This document shows positions 945-58,160 of a stretch of 64,000 nt of DNA, in pieces. The DNA lies in assembly GCF_055900595.2 (NCBI RefSeq), contig NZ_CM148325.1; one strand, 5' to 3'. Under the pieces are notes generated by a model that worked only from the letters and a program-made list of their open reading frames with translations, did not search any database and was not told the DNA's origin. The position numbers were made by a program, and so were the translations under genes. Positions within the stretch are counted from its first letter, which is position 1. Every line of letters starts with the position of its first letter.

Positions 945-3416
945 TTAAGAATCAGCCTGACTCGGGATCAGTTTTTGCCAGATAACTGAAACGTATTTTG
1001 CCTGGTAACGGGCGTCATCAAGTGCATTATGCCGCTCACCTTCGAATGGAATAGCCGTTCTGGCATCGAAGTCTATGGCTTTCCCCAGCTCAACGATTGT
1101 GCGTACATCGCGATCGTTGTAGTAACGCCACGGGCAGGGGATCCCCTGCCGTTCGTATGAACGGCGCAAAATCGTGTTGTCGAAGTTGGCTCCATTTCCC
1201 CAGACCTGAACAAAAAATTCACCGGAGTTTTCGTCGATAAATTCCCGCAATTGTAACAGTGCATCATCTAACGGGATTTCATCGGTCATAATGGCAGACT
1301 GCGCTTCACGTGATTGCTTCAGCCACCATTTAATGACGTCACGATCAATGACTCCGCCAGCAGTATTCAGATCTATGGTCTTGCTAAATTCCGGTCCCAT
1401 ATCTCCGGTTTGTGGATCGAAAAATATTGCGCCTATTGAGATAATCGGGGCATCAGGATTTTTTCCCATGGTTTCAAGGTCGATCATTAGATGGTCACAC
1501 GTCCTGCTGGTGGATGTGATAACGTGATGACCGTTCACCGTAATTAAGGGATCTGCCGTCTCGCCAGTTTCACTATCGCTGGCGTGATCCTGAGCGCTGC
1601 CAGCATTCTCCTTGTGTGGATGTTCAGCGCCTTCCATTTTCTCCGAATCGTCTTCCTGAACTTCAACCTGGTTCTTGTCATCGAATGTTTCCTGGTATGT
1701 TGCGTCGCCCATCACCGCACCACATTCAGGGCAGTTGCCGCCGCCGGTCTGACCGTAGGCGGTGCAGATTTTTTCCGCTTCCTGTTGCGCTACTGGCTCA
1801 GGTTGTTTCGTTTCTGGCTCGTTTTGTAACGCATTTGGGCTGTTTTGTTCCGCTTTCTGGTCGTTCTGTTCCGTTTCTTGCTGGTTCTGGTTCACTGAAT
1901 CGCGGGTTTCAATCCCCTTCACCCATTTCGGATCATTCGGATCGCTAATCCCTGCAACAAATTCACCACGTGATACAGCAAGCAACTGATTGGCGTCAGG
2001 CTGGCTGATATTGGCTGCCTGCATAATTTTGTTTACTTCGTCAGCGGTAATTTTTACCGGCTCTGGTTGTGCGGTCGTGTCAGATGCACCAGTATTTTGT
2101 TGTGAACCTGAGTATGTACCGTTTTTGCGGGCGAAATATTCTTCTTTCGTGATTTCAGTAGCCCCGGCAGCCAGCGCCTTATCCAGACCAGAAAGTTTGT
2201 TTGCGCGACCGTATTTTTCGCCATCCTTGTCGGTAAAGAGGAAGTAGAACGGCCCCTCACGCTCTACAGATGGTTCGACTTCCACTTTGCATTCAGTTTT
2301 TTCGTTGCCCGGAATTGCCGTTTCCACTGCATCAGTTTCTGGTACTGGCGACGAGAGAGTATCAGTTGCGCTCTGATTTGTTCCTTCATCTTCAAACACG
2401 CCCTTTGTAGTCAGGTATTTAGTAATGTATTTGTTCAGTGCCACAGGGTCTTTGTGAATGTCGATCGGACGTTCACGGACAAGGCCAAAAATAGTCTGGC
2501 GGTCGTAGCGAAGGGCATCAGGCTGTTTGCGCATTGATGCCGAGATACGCTTCCAGTCTTCGCGGTCGTTGTCGATAACTTCATTTTTTGCCCAGCGATG
2601 GATGCTGCCGTCAATGTTTCCGGCATCCACATCACCAGGCCAGAGAGCGTAGGCCAGTTCGTCATCCAGTGTTTTCCATGTCTGCTTGTATTCGCGATGA
2701 GTGGCAGCAATGACCGGGTTGATTTTTCCTGTTGAATTTTCAGTGTGCTGTTGATTGGCTCTGGCGCGGGCGAGATCAACAACAGACGTGTATTTTCCGG
2801 TTTCCTTGCGTTCATTTTCGCGACGTTTTTTCCAGATGCGCATCTCTGCCTGAATTTCGGGCCATTTAGCTCCAGGATTACATTTATGTTTAACCCACCC
2901 GATGGCATGCAGCTTAAGCTCCGGATACATGGCGTTAACTTCTGGCATTTTCATCAACGCTTCAACGATATGTCCGTCGAATGTTGCCATGTCTTCCTGC
3001 AACAATTCCTGCGCGCTAATCACCATATCAACGGTGATGTTTTCACATGTGTCGAACTTAACCATGACAGCGTTCTGTACTTCAGGGGCCAGCTTGTCAA
3101 AAGTGACGTTCATCGGATCTGATTCAGTCTCAACCGGGACAAAGGAAGCAGACTCCTCATCCCAGCGGTTTTCCTGCATATATTCAGCATCCCAGGAATC
3201 GAGGGCAGGGCGGGGTATACCGGGTTTATCCTCGCAAACAAGAAATTTATAAGCGCAGTCCTGAGCAACCGGATAATGTTCCAGGAATTGCCAGTGAAAT
3301 TTTGCGCGGGCGCGACGTTCATCACCGGCTTCAATGGCAGTGGCTACAGCGATTGCACCTTCTTCCTTTATTGCCTGTTCGTCCGGAATGGCGGCGCAAA
3401 TAAAGACTTTACTCAT
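945..3416 (-). CDS. Exonuclease-like early protein (823 aa) with C-terminal DnaQ/DEDDh-type 3'-5' exonuclease domain
   Basis: C-terminal motifs HLMIDLETMG, GANFDNTIL and HNALDDARYQAKY; central CPECG zinc-ribbon-like motif; Q/E-rich linker; position equivalent to lambda exo region. Confidence 0.75.
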   Translation of the reverse strand: MSKVFICAAIPDEQAIKEEGAIAVATAIEAGDERRARAKFHWQFLEHYPVAQDCAYKFLVCEDKPGIPRPALDSWDAEYMQENRWDEESASFVPVETESDPMNVTFDKLAPEVQNAVMVKFDTCENITVDMVISAQELLQEDMATFDGHIVEALMKMPEVNAMYPELKLHAIGWVKHKCNPGAKWPEIQAEMRIWKKRRENERKETGKYTSVVDLARARANQQHTENSTGKINPVIAATHREYKQTWKTLDDELAYALWPGDVDAGNIDGSIHRWAKNEVIDNDREDWKRISASMRKQPDALRYDRQTIFGLVRERPIDIHKDPVALNKYITKYLTTKGVFEDEGTNQSATDTLSSPVPETDAVETAIPGNEKTECKVEVEPSVEREGPFYFLFTDKDGEKYGRANKLSGLDKALAAGATEITKEEYFARKNGTYSGSQQNTGASDTTAQPEPVKITADEVNKIMQAANISQPDANQLLAVSRGEFVAGISDPNDPKWVKGIETRDSVNQNQQETEQNDQKAEQNSPNALQNEPETKQPEPVAQQEAEKICTAYGQTGGGNCPECGAVMGDATYQETFDDKNQVEVQEDDSEKMEGAEHPHKENAGSAQDHASDSETGETADPLITVNGHHVITSTSRTCDHLMIDLETMGKNPDAPIISIGAIFFDPQTGDMGPEFSKTIDLNTAGGVIDRDVIKWWLKQSREAQSAIMTDEIPLDDALLQLREFIDENSGEFFVQVWGNGANFDNTILRRSYERQGIPCPWRYYNDRDVRTIVELGKAIDFDARTAIPFEGERHNALDDARYQAKYVSVIWQKLIPSQADS

Positions 3417-4057: not shown

Positions 4058-4113
4058 AAACGGCGGCAGAGCAGTCACGGAGTAAAACTGATACCGCTAA
4101 ACGTCACCAGAAA
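4058..4113 (-). ncRNA. dicF: DicF small RNA (ftsZ-targeting sRNA of Qin-type prophages)
   Basis: Minus-strand sequence ttttctggtgacgtttagcggtatcagttttactccgtgactgctctgccgccg followed by a T-run; near-identical to DicF as I recall it. Confidence 0.8.
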
Positions 4114-9669: not shown

Positions 9670-9823
9670 TTTTATATTGGCGAGGTGACGTGAGTTAAGT
9701 AGAATTGCTGCGGGTGCTTGAGGCTATCTGCCTCAGGCATGAACACCAACGGCAGATAGAGAAAAGCCCCAGTTAACATTACGCGTCCTGCAAGACGCTT
9801 AACATTAATCTGAGGCCAATTTC

Positions 9824-10036
9824 ATGCTAGACACATGTAGGTTAGCCTCTTACGTGCCGGAAGGCAAGGAGAAGCAGGCTATGAAGCAGCAAAAGGCGAT
9901 GTTAATCGCCCTGATCGTCATCTGTTTAACCGTCATAGTGACGGCACTGGTAACGAGGAAAGACCTCTGCGAGGTACGAATCCGAACCGGCCAGACGGAG
10001 GTCGCTGTCTTCACAGCTTACGAACCTGAGGAGTAA
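9824..10036 (+). CDS. mok: mok-like reading frame overlapping hok
   Basis: 70-aa frame that starts upstream of and reads through hok, as in hok/sok loci. Confidence 0.5.
   Translation: MLDTCRLASYVPEGKEKQAMKQQKAMLIALIVICLTVIVTALVTRKDLCEVRIRTGQTEVAVFTAYEPEE
9881..10036 (+). CDS. hok: Hok/Gef-family type I toxin
   Basis: 51 aa MKQQKAMLIALIVICLTVIVTALVTRKDLCEVRIRTGQTEVAVFTAYEPEE, Hok family (HokD/RelF-like as I recall it). Confidence 0.85.
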   Translation: MKQQKAMLIALIVICLTVIVTALVTRKDLCEVRIRTGQTEVAVFTAYEPEE

Positions 10037-19053: not shown

Positions 19054-19416
19054 ATTAATATTAAATCGGATTATTTTTAGCGCTGAATGTGAAATTTAAA
19101 TAAAAAGGACTCTTCCATGAGTCAAAATCCTTGAAATCTTAAGGGTAAGATAAAAGGTCATTAGACAGAATGACACGTTTTATTAATAAATAAAGCTATT
19201 GTTTCATTCGTGTGTTTTTCTTTACAAAAGTAATCCTTGCTATGGTTGGTTAATCATGCGTTAATGGTGTTCTGGTTTGTTACAAAATTATCTGAAGCAG
19301 TCATTGTTATAATTTTATTATTTGTACCTCTTGAGATTTCCTTGTTGGTTTTTCTCTCTGATATTTTTTTTCGGACCATTCTGCCCAAGGGCTAACTTCT
19401 TCAAAAGGTAATAATG

Positions 19417-19629
19417 ATGTCTAACAAAATGACTGGTTTAGTGAAATGGTTTAACCCTGAAAAAGGTTTTGGTTTCATCACGCCGAAAGATGGTAGCAAA
19501 GATGTGTTTGTCCATTTCTCAGCTATTCAGAGCAACGATTTCAAAACGTTAACTGAGAATCAGGAAGTCGAATTTGGTATTGAGAACGGACCTAAAGGCC
19601 CCGCGGCTGTTCATGTTGTGGCACTTTGA
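19417..19629 (+). CDS. cspI: Cold shock protein (CspI-like)
   Basis: [38 protein letters not shown]... cold-shock domain. Confidence 0.9.
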
Positions 19630-19828
19630 GGTAGATAATATTACAAACCATATTCACTTTAGATGCCCGTGTTGCCATGGTTCTCAGTATAGAACATCAT
19701 CTTTTGATGTTTCTGACAGGAATCCTTTCGGGGCAAAATGTATCTTTTGTAAATCAATGATGATTACATTTGATAATATTTCACAATACTTAAATGTTAG
19801 CCGTCTATCGTTAGATTTAAGAAAGTGA
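19613..19828 (+). CDS. Possible small Cys4 zinc-ribbon protein
   Basis: [10 protein letters not shown]...CIFCKS motif; weak RBS; start overlaps the csp stop. Confidence 0.3.
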
Positions 19829-40623: not shown

Positions 40624-41330
40624 TGCACAGAAAACCCCCAGCTAGGCTGGGGGTTCCGGAAAGCTTTCAGCTTTGAGCCAGTTATTAAAACCCCTTTTGA
40701 TTTGTTAAAACACCTTGCGGTCTGGCAACTGCAAGTGTCAAACAAGAAATCAAAAGGGGGTCCCAATGGGGGACGAAAAGAGCTTAGCGCACACCCGCTG
40801 GAACTGTAAATATCACATAGTTTTTGCGCCGAAATACCGAAGACTGGCGTTTTACGGAGAGAAGCGTAGGGCGATAGGCAGTATTTTGAGAAAGCTGTGT
40901 GAGTGGAAAAGCGTACGGATTCTGGAAGCAGAGTGCTGCGCAGATCATATCCATATGCTTGTGGAAATCCCACCCAAAATGAGCGTATCCGGCTTTATGG
41001 GATATCTGAAAGGGAAAAGCAGTCTGATGCTTTACGAGCAGTTTGGGGATTTGAAATTCAAATACAGAAACAGGGAGTTCTGGTGCCGAGGGTACTATGT
41101 CGATACGGTGGGTAAGAACACGGCGAAGATACAGGACTACATAAAGCACCAGCTTGAAGAGGATAAAATGGGGGAGCAGTTATCGATTCCATATCCGGGC
41201 AGCCCGTTTACGGGCCGTAAGTAACGAAGTTGAATGCAAATGTCAGATCGTATGCGCCTGTTAGGGCGCGGCTGGTAACAGAGCCTTACAGGCGCATTTG
41301 AAAAACCTCCGGCTATGCCGGAGGATATTT
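40621..41330 (+). mobile_element. IS200-family insertion sequence (about 710 bp, boundaries approximate)
   Basis: Left-end hairpin cccccagctaggctggggg, second stem-loop over the RBS, tnpA, right-end hairpin cctccggctatgccggagg. Confidence 0.8.
40766..41224 (+). CDS. tnpA: IS200 transposase TnpA (HUH Y1 transposase)
   Basis: MGDEKSLAHTRWNCKYHIVFAPKYRR...HIHMLVEIPPKMSVS matches IS200 TnpA. Confidence 0.9.
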   Translation: MGDEKSLAHTRWNCKYHIVFAPKYRRLAFYGEKRRAIGSILRKLCEWKSVRILEAECCADHIHMLVEIPPKMSVSGFMGYLKGKSSLMLYEQFGDLKFKYRNREFWCRGYYVDTVGKNTAKIQDYIKHQLEEDKMGEQLSIPYPGSPFTGRK

Positions 41331-55641: not shown

Positions 55642-56532
55642 ATGATCAAGAAGACAACGGAAATTGATGCCATCTTGTTAAATCTCAATAAGGCTATCGA
55701 TGCCCACTACCAGTGGCTGGTAAGTATGTTTCACAGCGTGGTCGCGAGAGATGCCAGTAAGCCAGAAATAACGGATAACCATTCTTATGGACTGTGCCAG
55801 TTTGGTCGGTGGATTGATCATCTGGGGCCACTCGATAACGATGAATTACCTTACGTTCGGCTAATGGATTCTGCCCATCAACATATGCATAACTGTGGTC
55901 GGGAATTAATGCTGGCTATTGTTGAAAATCACTGGCAGGACGCGCATTTCGACGCCTTTCAGGAAGGGTTGCTTTCTTTTACTGCGGCATTAACCGATTA
56001 CAAAATTTATTTGCTGACGATCCGTAGCAATATGGATGTTTTGACGGGTTTGCCGGGTCGTCGGGTTCTTGATGAATCCTTTGATCATCAGTTACGCAAC
56101 GCTGAACCTCTGAATCTTTATTTAATGTTGTTGGATATTGACCGATTTAAATTGGTTAATGATACCTACGGGCATTTAATCGGCGATGTAGTATTACGCA
56201 CCCTGGCAACTTACTTAGCCAGTTGGACGCGCGATTACGAAACGGTTTATCGCTACGGTGGCGAAGAATTTATCATTATTGTGAAAGCGGCTAATGATGA
56301 AGAAGCATGTCGTGCAGGTGTCAGAATTTGCCAGTTAGTCGATAACCATGCCATCACACATTCTGAAGGGCATATCAACATTACCGTGACTGCTGGTGTG
56401 AGTCGTGCATTTCCTGAAGAGCCTCTGGATGTGGTCATTGGAAAAGCGGACCGGGCAATGTATGAGGGTAAGCAAACCGGAAGAAATCGCTGTATGTTTA
56501 TTGACGAACAAAACGTGATTAACCGAGTTTAA
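55642..56532 (+). CDS. dgcZ: Diguanylate cyclase DgcZ (zinc-sensing domain plus GGDEF)
   Basis: MIKKTTEIDAILLNLNKAIDAHYQWL...; RYGGEEF GGDEF motif. Confidence 0.9.
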   Translation: MIKKTTEIDAILLNLNKAIDAHYQWLVSMFHSVVARDASKPEITDNHSYGLCQFGRWIDHLGPLDNDELPYVRLMDSAHQHMHNCGRELMLAIVENHWQDAHFDAFQEGLLSFTAALTDYKIYLLTIRSNMDVLTGLPGRRVLDESFDHQLRNAEPLNLYLMLLDIDRFKLVNDTYGHLIGDVVLRTLATYLASWTRDYETVYRYGGEEFIIIVKAANDEEACRAGVRICQLVDNHAITHSEGHINITVTAGVSRAFPEEPLDVVIGKADRAMYEGKQTGRNRCMFIDEQNVINRV

Positions 56533-56577
56533 GCTCCGTTTAACATTCATTGAGAAAACTGATGCTACTGTGTCAAC

Positions 56578-56677
56578 GATCCGTTATCAGTGCAGGAAAA
56601 TGCCTGTTAGCGTAAAAGCAAAACACAAATCTATCCATGCAAGCATTCACCGCCGGTTTACTGGCGGTTTTTTTTCG
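56578..56677 (+). ncRNA. mgrR: Candidate MgrR small RNA (boundaries approximate)
   Basis: Intergenic position between dgcZ and mgtS; ends at intrinsic terminator ccgccggtttactggcggtttttttt. Confidence 0.45.
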
Positions 56678-56750
56678 CCGTCATAAAAATCAGGCCCCTT
56701 GTACACAGTTGTAACAAGGGGCCGGTTAGGTGAGGGATTATCTCCGTTCA

Positions 56751-56846
56751 TTAGTCATCCCATTTGTGGCTGAAATACGCGGCCAGAAAACCAGAAAATA
56801 AAATTATTCCCAGTACGGCCATAAAAACATTCATATTACCCAGCAT
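56751..56846 (-). CDS. mgtS: Small membrane protein MgtS (YneM), 31 aa
   Basis: Minus-strand MLGNMNVFMAVLGIILFSGFLAAYFSHKWDD; not in the ORF track because of size. Confidence 0.8.
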   Translation of the reverse strand: MLGNMNVFMAVLGIILFSGFLAAYFSHKWDD

Positions 56847-56972
56847 TATTTGCCTCCGTTTATGGTGTGGTGTGTTTCCTCGCTTACCTTAATTTTCATC
56901 TCAATGAGAAAGATATTAGCAGAGGTAACCTAAACGAAGGCTGAATTAAATTTTTATTGTGTTCGACTTAAA

Positions 56973-58160
56973 TCAACAAAGCGCGGGCTGCCCCCACGGT
57001 CTTGCACGAATCCCTTTTAACATCAGCACCCACGCAGCAATGATCACCAACGCTAAGATGATAAACAGCGAGGAAGGCGGCAGGCTGGTTAGCACTACGC
57101 CACTCACTAATGGGTTAATCGCCGCACCAAGCCAGCCTAAAGACTGAGCGGAAAAATAGCTGGCTTTCATTCCTGCCGGCGCAATATGGTCAATCAACAT
57201 ATACTCGCCCGGCGCATAAATGATTTCACCGACAGTAAATACCGCAGCTGACATACCCCACAATAGCAGGCTGTTGCCGGAAAAAATAAAACCGACCAGC
57301 CCAATGACGAAACAGAGGGTGCCTGCTGTCATCAGCGCGCGGATGTTAGCCGGGTTAAGGCGGCGGCCCACGGAATATTGCAACGTAACCACCATGGCAG
57401 CATTCACCGGAAGAACAACCGCGACCACCTTTTCGGCAAAATCCCCATCAGCAATCACCATCACATATTGTGAAATGCATGAAGCAAATGCGCCGCTAAC
57501 AAAAGAAGCCAGAAAACCAGAGCAGGTAAACCACAACAGTGCTTTATCTTGTAATAAAACTTTCGGCGACCAGACACTGCCTGTTTCCGTGGCGATGATT
57601 TTCTCGCTGCGCTTTACCCAAATTTGAATGAAAAGCATGGGAAACGCGGAACAGATAGCTGCCAGCCAAAAGGGCAGATTGATGCTCTGCATCACCAACA
57701 GCGTGCCGAGCGGCGGACCGATGGTCCAGCCAATGTTGAGCATGGTGTAGTTGATTGAGAAGATTTTCGTTTTGCTGGTGGACGAAAGATTGTCGGCAAA
57801 CCAGGCTTTCAACACGGTAGCAAAAACGGAATAGGCGCAGTTAATAAGGGCAAAAAAGAGCACCACCAGCGTCACGTTATTCACTAAAGGAATGGCAATA
57901 AAACCGCTAGCGAAGGCGGTAATTGCCAGTAACATATAGCGTTTCTTGTCGAACTTATCCGCCAGGATACCAAAACCGAGGCTAAAAACGACGCCAATAG
58001 TGAGCGCAATTGTCATCGCATAACCGATTAGATCGACACTCAGGCTGTACTGGCGACTCAAGTAAATGGTCATAAATGGCAGCGTAGCGCCGCGTCCGAT
58101 GGTTAATAACAACGACGAGGCAAGAAGGGCGCTGGTAGAGCGTCGTAGGGATAAGTTCAT
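56973..58160 (-). CDS. ydeE: MFS transporter YdeE
   Basis: 395 aa, 12-TM MFS. Confidence 0.85.
   Translation of the reverse strand: MNLSLRRSTSALLASSLLLTIGRGATLPFMTIYLSRQYSLSVDLIGYAMTIALTIGVVFSLGFGILADKFDKKRYMLLAITAFASGFIAIPLVNNVTLVVLFFALINCAYSVFATVLKAWFADNLSSTSKTKIFSINYTMLNIGWTIGPPLGTLLVMQSINLPFWLAAICSAFPMLFIQIWVKRSEKIIATETGSVWSPKVLLQDKALLWFTCSGFLASFVSGAFASCISQYVMVIADGDFAEKVVAVVLPVNAAMVVTLQYSVGRRLNPANIRALMTAGTLCFVIGLVGFIFSGNSLLLWGMSAAVFTVGEIIYAPGEYMLIDHIAPAGMKASYFSAQSLGWLGAAINPLVSGVVLTSLPPSSLFIILALVIIAAWVLMLKGIRARPWGQPALC

Follow-up and report, generated by a model that had tools for sequence, protein, structure and literature searches.

The mgrR and mgtS-mgtT locus of Escherichia coli between dgcZ and ydeE: a convergent sRNA and small-protein gene pair with putative PhoP-type promoters

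The stretch of DNA analyzed (hereafter the window) comprises 64,000 nt of contig NZ_CM148325.1 from the NCBI RefSeq assembly GCF_055900595.2, and all coordinates given below are positions in this window. The region considered here is bordered by dgcZ on the plus strand (55642-56532, with 56532 being the last base of the stop codon) and ydeE on the minus strand (56973-58160). It contains the gene for the 98-nt sRNA MgrR on the plus strand (56578-56675) and, on the minus strand, mgtS (yneM; 56751-56846 including the stop codon), which encodes a 31-aa inner-membrane protein (MLGNMNVFMAVLGIILFSGFLAAYFSHKWDD), followed by the 34-aa ORF mgtT (56647-56751; MNGDNPSPNRPLVTTVYKGPDFYDGEKKPPVNRR). In K-12 MG1655 the same three genes are annotated here by RefSeq (mgtS, b4599; mgtT, b4775; ncRNA mgrR, b4698). 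The alignment between K-12 MG1655 and the window contained 4 substitutions in 491 nt, and a 501-nt query around the locus was found in all but 10 of the 5426 complete E. coli genomes (5416), with many chromosomes being 100% identical.

The original prediction, made from the sequence alone, had proposed a convergent pair of an MgrR-like sRNA and a small membrane peptide at 56578-56846. These two ends coincide exactly with the 5′ end of K-12 mgrR and with the first base of the mgtS start codon, respectively, and the convergent arrangement of mgrR (plus strand) and mgtS (minus strand) is also stated in the literature (bioRxiv 10.1101/2021.06.30.450655). A pair of this kind is usually left out of conventional ORF tracks, yet it was recognized to the exact base from the sequence alone. 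With respect to gene content MgrR and MgtS were named correctly, but the published mgtT and the upstream ORF CDS58 were overlooked.

Structured RNAs were searched for by scanning the whole window with Rfam models at the gathering threshold. For the comparison across species, contigs from one genome per species were fetched using a 20-mer corresponding to MgrR nt 50-69, and the 80 loci obtained in this way represent about 15 enterobacterial genera. Since this seed 20-mer served to select the loci, the invariance of the seed in the resulting alignments is given by construction and carries no weight. The identity, boundaries and structure of the genes, the promoter motifs and their conservation, the coding selection on mgtS and the convergent geometry were obtained in the present analysis; PhoQP dependence, Hfq binding, targets and the function of MgtS were taken from the literature.

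The Rfam family RF01407 (STnc560, described as ‘Hfq binding RNA’) matched positions 56544-56757 of the plus strand over the complete model (1-214 of 214) with 280.2 bits (E-value 4.9e-64). The covariance-model search that had been suggested as a check was therefore positive, the gathering score of the family being 55 bits, and K-12 mgrR (b4698) maps to the same place. Since the Rfam family is named STnc560 and not MgrR, the identification as MgrR rests on the coincidence with the K-12 annotation; a search of the accessible literature found no paper carrying both names. The 214-nt model is far longer than the 98-nt sRNA and its boundaries are not those of the RNA: it also spans 34 nt upstream of the start site, with a modeled ‘hairpin’ in the promoter, and on the other side takes in the mgtS terminator, the greater part of mgtT and the final codons of mgtS. 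The mgrR sequence is identical to K-12 b4698 at 97 of 98 nt, the single change being a C at nt 4 (56581) where K-12 has a U, at an unpaired position at which the C agrees with the Rfam consensus. As in K-12, the sRNA is 98 nt long and is flanked by dgcZ and mgtT/mgtS, and its seed, A-rich stretch, terminator and PhoP-box promoter are alike.

The minimum free energy fold of MgrR (-25.9 kcal/mol, z -2.35) consists of a 5′ stem-loop (56582-56612, nt 5-35), an unstructured center and a terminator hairpin with a U8 tail. The center includes an A-rich (ARN)n stretch (56614-56629) and the seed U55-A68 (56632-56645); the terminator stem (56649-56668) has 8 pairs, 6 of them G-C, and is followed by the U8 tail (56668-56675). 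Nuclease probing of MgrR has shown a matching layout, in which the pairing region U55-A68 is single-stranded together with an A-rich stretch that resembles (ARN)5 (PMC6239178). The predicted fold has the layout of Hfq class II sRNAs, namely a 5′ stem-loop, a single-stranded A-rich stretch and seed, and a terminator with a U-tail. The best duplex with the K-12 eptB 5′ region placed MgrR nt 54-72 over the eptB AUG (-18.7 kcal/mol); this energy was not significant compared with shuffled sequences (z -0.92), and its location agrees with the published seed U55-A68 (PMC6239178).

The terminator scan of the plus strand identified the same intrinsic terminator, with its stem at 56649-56668 and a run of T8 ending at 56675. 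It lies 117 nt (start) to 143 nt (end) after the dgcZ stop codon, so that the original placement at about 150 bp past dgcZ was roughly right. The scan found 2 terminators vs 0.7 expected in shuffled sequences and alone was not significant; the weight therefore rests on the models and the cross-species comparison. Among diverged MgrR homologs the 5′ stem-loop was kept in 44 of 44 sequences according to per-sequence folding, despite extensive sequence turnover (mean z -1.97, with 39 of 44 below -1). The terminator pairs were also kept, including one with a compensatory change (AU 29, GC 9). RNAalifold, applied to the MAFFT alignment of the 44 homologs, recovered the terminator only, because the 5′ part of MgrR is too diverged to stay in register.

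Upstream of mgrR a PhoP box in direct orientation was predicted by cross-species footprinting at 56537-56553 on the plus strand (CGTTTA-ACATT-CATTGA). Over 74 unique sequences its first half-site was nearly invariant (G in 73, T in 74, T in 74, T in 72 and A in 74), and in the second half-site TT was kept in 73 and A in 61 of the 74. The extended -10 element (TG-c-TACTGT, 56563-56571) has its last base 7 nt upstream of the annotated start of the RNA (56578) and was likewise conserved, with T56563 in 69 of 74 sequences and G56564, T56566, A56567 and T56571 in all 74. The near-invariant arrangement in this set is YGTTTA-N5-YRTTKA, a distance of 12 nt, and then TG-n-TAnnnT.

This promoter bears directly on the question whether the plus-strand terminator is simply that of dgcZ, in which case the preceding approximately 140 nt would be the dgcZ 3′ UTR and there would be no independent sRNA gene, a possibility that had been named at the outset as one that would refute the sRNA. 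Between the dgcZ stop codon (56532) and 56649 the terminator scan detected nothing else that resembles a terminator, and dgcZ transcripts therefore probably end at the MgrR hairpin, which makes it likely that the terminator is shared. However, a conserved PhoP box and extended -10 element are located between the dgcZ stop codon and 56578, the RF01407 match is full-length, and K-12 annotates an ncRNA at this position. Moreover, MgrR is conserved together with a like promoter in Salmonella, Kluyvera, Kosakonia, Enterobacter and others, where the upstream neighbor is not a dgcZ homolog. A terminator that belongs to dgcZ only is thus extremely improbable.

The minus-strand peptide, which had been described as an MgtS/YneM sequence of 31 aa, was found at 56751-56846; its absence from the ORF track is expected with the usual cut-off of 60 aa. 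It passed both the Pfam model PF22865 (‘MgtS-like’; 88.2 bits, cut-off 27, E-value 2.2e-25) and the NCBIfam equivalog model NF033842 (‘protein MgtS’; 80.6 bits, cut-off 35, E-value 5.8e-23, positions 1-31 of 31). Compared with K-12 b4599 the coding sequence is identical at the nucleotide level and the ribosome-binding site, PhoP box and -10 hexamer are alike; one upstream substitution (56952, T here and C in K-12) lies outside the conserved motifs. Short ORFs are plentiful, with 57 of at least 20 aa within 3.5 kb, and a frame of 31 codons in an intergenic region might for this reason be taken for a chance ORF. This explanation can be discarded altogether: two curated hidden Markov models were passed with E-values below 1e-22, a canonical Shine-Dalgarno sequence (GGAGG, 56853-56857, read from the sequence) is positioned 6 nt before the ATG, and detection of the MgtS protein has been published (PMC11429745; bioRxiv 10.1101/511675). 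In addition, third-position changes dominated among the orthologs (35 unique sequences; 2999/1472/7348 differences at the first, second and third codon positions), and the synonymous to nonsynonymous changes were 4745:1943 in frame vs 1086:6285 and 700:6694 in the shifted frames, i.e., a synonymous excess of about 2.4:1 in frame vs about 1:6 to 1:10 out of frame. mgtS is clearly a genuine coding gene that has a ribosome-binding site and evolves under purifying selection. Membrane localization of MgtS has been shown and mgtS has been placed in an operon with mgtT (PMC11429745).

The PhoP box predicted by footprinting upstream of mgtS (AATTCA-GCCTT-CGTTTA, 56947-56931, minus strand) is also in direct orientation. 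Among 41 sequences its proximal half-site was the better conserved one (G in 40, T in 40, T in 33, T in 40 and A in 41), vs 35 and 33 for TT and 32 for A in the distal half-site. The -10 hexamer TAATAT follows at 56918-56913 (T56918 in 39, A56917 in 41 and T56913 in 41 of the 41 sequences), the common arrangement being RRTTMA-N5-YGTTTA, 12 nt and then TAATAT, and the predicted transcription start is near 56906. The PhoP-box search that had been put forward as a further check therefore yielded boxes upstream of both genes, conserved across genera.

In PhoP promoters of ‘architecture I’ one box in direct orientation precedes the -10 element by 12 nt, as in mgtA, phoP, slyB and pmrD (Zwir et al., 2012; PMC3335776). 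The mgrR and mgtS promoters resemble these, each with a (T/G/C)GTTTA-N5-(T/G)GTTTA-like box 12 nt from the -10 element; they differ from them in that one of the two half-sites is degenerate, namely CATTGA for mgrR and AATTCA for mgtS. The conserved motif, its spacing and the match to architecture I suggest that the mgrR promoter is of the PhoP type, with PhoP dependence itself being known from the literature. For the other promoter, a reporter of the mgtS-mgtT region had PhoQ-dependent activity that was induced by low Mg2+ (PMC11429745).

A second candidate for the mgrR box, AGTTTA-AGCTC-CGTTTA at 56526-56542, was rejected as its upstream hexamer is not conserved in the cross-species footprint. 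This hexamer (AGTTTA, 56526-56531, plus strand) is an additional copy located one 11-nt repeat upstream of the conserved box, overlaps the dgcZ stop codon, and is present in Escherichia and not conserved across genera. The only perfect GTTTA-N6-GTTTA in the window is at 56527-56542. A degenerate PhoP-box search of the whole window gave 14 matches vs 17.8 expected and was uninformative.

The leader of mgtS contains an upstream ORF of 17 codons (56899-56846, minus strand; MKIKVSEETHHTINGGK), the TAA of which overlaps the mgtS ATG by one base (TAATG). In position, frame and sequence it matches ‘CDS58’ exactly, the ORF with the weakest western signal in the PIRT-Seq set (PMC12350097). Its frame is not open in Citrobacter. 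A conserved block in the 5′ UTR (AAGGTAAGCGAGG, 56890-56878, minus strand) has GAGG in 40-41 of 41 sequences; it is about 30 nt upstream of the real mgtS Shine-Dalgarno sequence, and in Kluyvera the aligned GAGG is the mgtS Shine-Dalgarno sequence itself. Just upstream of the mgtS PhoP box, over the last ydeE codons, there is a terminator-like hairpin (CGTGGGGGCAGCCCGCG, then CTTTGTTGAT; 56982-56998, minus strand), a match to the consensus that may insulate mgtS from ydeE read-through.

Downstream of mgtS the mgtT ATG and the mgtS stop codon have one base in common (TAATG), and the last 29 nt of mgtT are antisense to the 3′ end of MgrR. Because mgtT reaches into MgrR, the 3′ ends of the two transcription units overlap. 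Position and frame of mgtT are the same as in K-12 b4775 and 33 of 34 aa are identical; T15 here corresponds to V15 in K-12 and results from two adjacent substitutions (56708-56709, GT here and AC in K-12) in the loop of the mgtS terminator hairpin. In a second E. coli representative (L016) MgtT differs at 5 of 34 residues while MgtS is identical. mgtT was found by initiation-complex ribosome profiling and tagging (bioRxiv 10.1101/511675), and further evidence for its translation has been published (PMC11429745; PMC12350097). Across genera the conservation of mgtT extends to the start and the first approximately 6 codons. The ORF is between 7 and 83 aa long, Kluyvera lacks the frame, and a length of 34 aa is essentially confined to Escherichia. 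The cross-genus comparison of mgtT gave no codon periodicity (4396/4808/5214) and a synonymous to nonsynonymous ratio of 1225:1855. mgtT is therefore weakly conserved, shows no coding-type selection and is not a conserved coding frame.

Within the mgtT ORF lies a 31-nt hairpin on the minus strand (56723-56693; GGCCCCUUG...CAAGGGGCC), followed by UGAUUUUUAU at 56692-56683, and together these positions (56683-56723) probably function as the mgtS terminator. The fold of 56760-56640 (minus strand) had an energy of -37 kcal/mol (z -3.30), and none of 200 shuffled sequences was as stable. The terminator scan missed this hairpin, probably since its loop criterion does not fit.

In 44 of the loci mgtS was convergent with and directly downstream of MgrR; these loci belonged to Escherichia, Citrobacter, Salmonella, Kluyvera, Kosakonia, Phytobacter, Pluralibacter and Yokenella. 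dgcZ was found upstream of MgrR only in Escherichia and most Citrobacter. As the flanks vary, the pair behaves as a module in about 8 genera. In 35 loci MgrR was present and mgtS was not found in the flanking DNA of each locus, including by a profile search for diverged mgtS (L004, L010, L012, L014, L024, L027, L028, L032, L036, L039-L041, L043, L046, L047, L049, L060, L062-L065, L067, L069, L072-L074 and others); one of the 35, from Citrobacter portucalensis (L078), ends within mgtS. The loci lacking mgtS are mainly from Enterobacter, Lelliottia, Leclercia, Silvania, Siccibacter and Huaxiibacter, and MgrR keeps its PhoP-box promoter there. The occurrence of MgrR without mgtS in this Enterobacter clade shows that the linkage of sRNA and small protein is not universal. 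In Kluyvera and a related isolate (L019, L037, L053, L056, L068, L075, L076) mgtT is absent and the distance between the MgrR U-run and the mgtS stop codon is 4-5 nt, from which we conclude that the convergent genes share one hairpin as a bidirectional terminator and that their 3′ ends overlap.

A 31-aa hydrophobic peptide beside an sRNA on the opposite strand superficially resembles a type I toxin-antitoxin module, in which MgtS would be the toxin and its mRNA would be repressed by antisense MgrR, and overexpression of MgtS does lengthen the lag phase (PMC11429745). Yet MgrR overlaps neither the coding region, the ribosome-binding site nor the 5′ UTR of mgtS, the sole overlap being the 29 nt of the mgtT 3′ end, and the best duplex between the MgrR core and the mgtS mRNA (-14.4 kcal/mol, z -0.18) was no better than those of shuffled sequences. 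PhoQP moreover induces both genes together, and their effects on Mg2+ homeostasis point the same way (PMC11429745; bioRxiv 10.1101/2021.06.30.450655), and MgrR occurs without its presumed target in the 35 loci mentioned above. We consider such a module to have next to no probability.

The 3′ overlap could nevertheless have a function of its own if RNA reading through the mgtS terminator, being antisense to the MgrR terminator, coupled the two PhoP outputs by duplex formation or transcriptional interference. The mgtT ORF crosses the mgtS terminator hairpin and extends 29 nt into MgrR, so that a full-length mgtT needs read-through, tagged MgtT has been reported as detected (bioRxiv 10.1101/511675), and the 4-5 nt gap in Kluyvera brings the 3′ ends into overlap. 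Against this, deletion or overexpression of mgtT has no phenotype (PMC11429745), the length of the mgtT frame is not conserved and its codons show no selection, and MgrR works without mgtS in the Enterobacter clade. A functional overlap therefore appears unlikely. A more specific form of it starts from the conserved T[AG]ATG junction, the likewise conserved ‘MN.DNP’ codons directly following mgtS and the hairpin within the mgtT frame, which might together act as a switch at the 3′ end of mgtS that depends on translation. By starting again in the mgtT frame, ribosomes would open or cover the mgtS terminator, and the read-through transcripts would be antisense to the MgrR terminator (by the 29-nt overlap in E. 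coli and by a near-complete 3′ overlap in Kluyvera) and would cross-regulate the two PhoP outputs, with the MgtT peptide as a by-product. We regard such a switch, including the cross-regulation, as very unlikely.

The region between dgcZ and ydeE is almost certainly the E. coli mgrR/mgtS-mgtT locus with two convergent transcription units activated by PhoQ/PhoP, as is also indicated by the published convergent and PhoPQ-dependent transcription of MgrR and mgtS (bioRxiv 10.1101/2021.06.30.450655). According to this reading phosphorylated PhoP would bind the box at 56537-56553 (plus strand) in place of a -35 element, and the 98-nt MgrR would be transcribed from 56578 to its own intrinsic terminator (56649-56675). 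As a class II Hfq-dependent sRNA, MgrR would contact the distal face of Hfq with the (ARN)n stretch and the proximal face with the U8 tail, leaving the single-stranded seed U55-A68 to pair with targets such as eptB and ygdQ. The second box (56947-56931, minus strand) would drive an mRNA of about 200 nt encoding MgtS, a single-pass inner-membrane protein of 31 aa that raises intracellular Mg2+ by stabilizing the importer MgtA and modulating PitA, both of these activities being published (PMC11429745; bioRxiv 10.1101/2021.06.30.450655). Besides mgtS the same mRNA would carry mgtT, which is coupled to it, and an upstream ORF with weak translation.

The locus is published, annotated and experimentally characterized, and is an ordinary, already known magnesium-starvation locus of E. 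coli. No new biology was gained, as the roles of MgrR and MgtS have all been published; the minor comparative refinements are the module-like convergent pair, the Enterobacter clade with MgrR but without mgtS, and the lack of coding constraint on mgtT. Its importance lies in the two PhoQ/PhoP effectors, with repression of eptB by MgrR altering LPS and the sensitivity to antimicrobial peptides, and MgtS increasing intracellular Mg2+ via MgtA and PitA.

Several single loci deviated from the common arrangement. Enterobacteriaceae bacterium RIT691 (L021) has two copies of the MgrR seed 1.6 kb apart (1437-1456 and 3031-3050), only one of which is convergent with mgtS, and in a Pluralibacter metagenome-assembled genome (MAG; L050) mgtS is about 4 kb from the seed match. 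For three loci (L007, L079, L034) the public assemblies look mislabeled or contaminated. E. coli mgtS (100%) and ydeE (98.9%) are located on a MAG contig assigned to ‘Caldithrix sp.’, ‘Chryseobacterium sp. 18061’ has a Citrobacter-like locus, and a match in Atopobium, which is without the terminator, looks like a chance match to the 20-mer.

Elsewhere in the window the Rfam scan gave further matches at gathering level, namely DicF (4061-4112, minus strand), sok, a hok/sok-type antitoxin RNA (9712-9886, plus strand), a cspA-thermoregulator-like 5′ UTR (19259-19675, plus strand) and STnc490 (40633-40756, plus strand). The DicF, sok and cspA-thermoregulator-like matches would fit the neighborhood of a Qin-type prophage as on the K-12 map.
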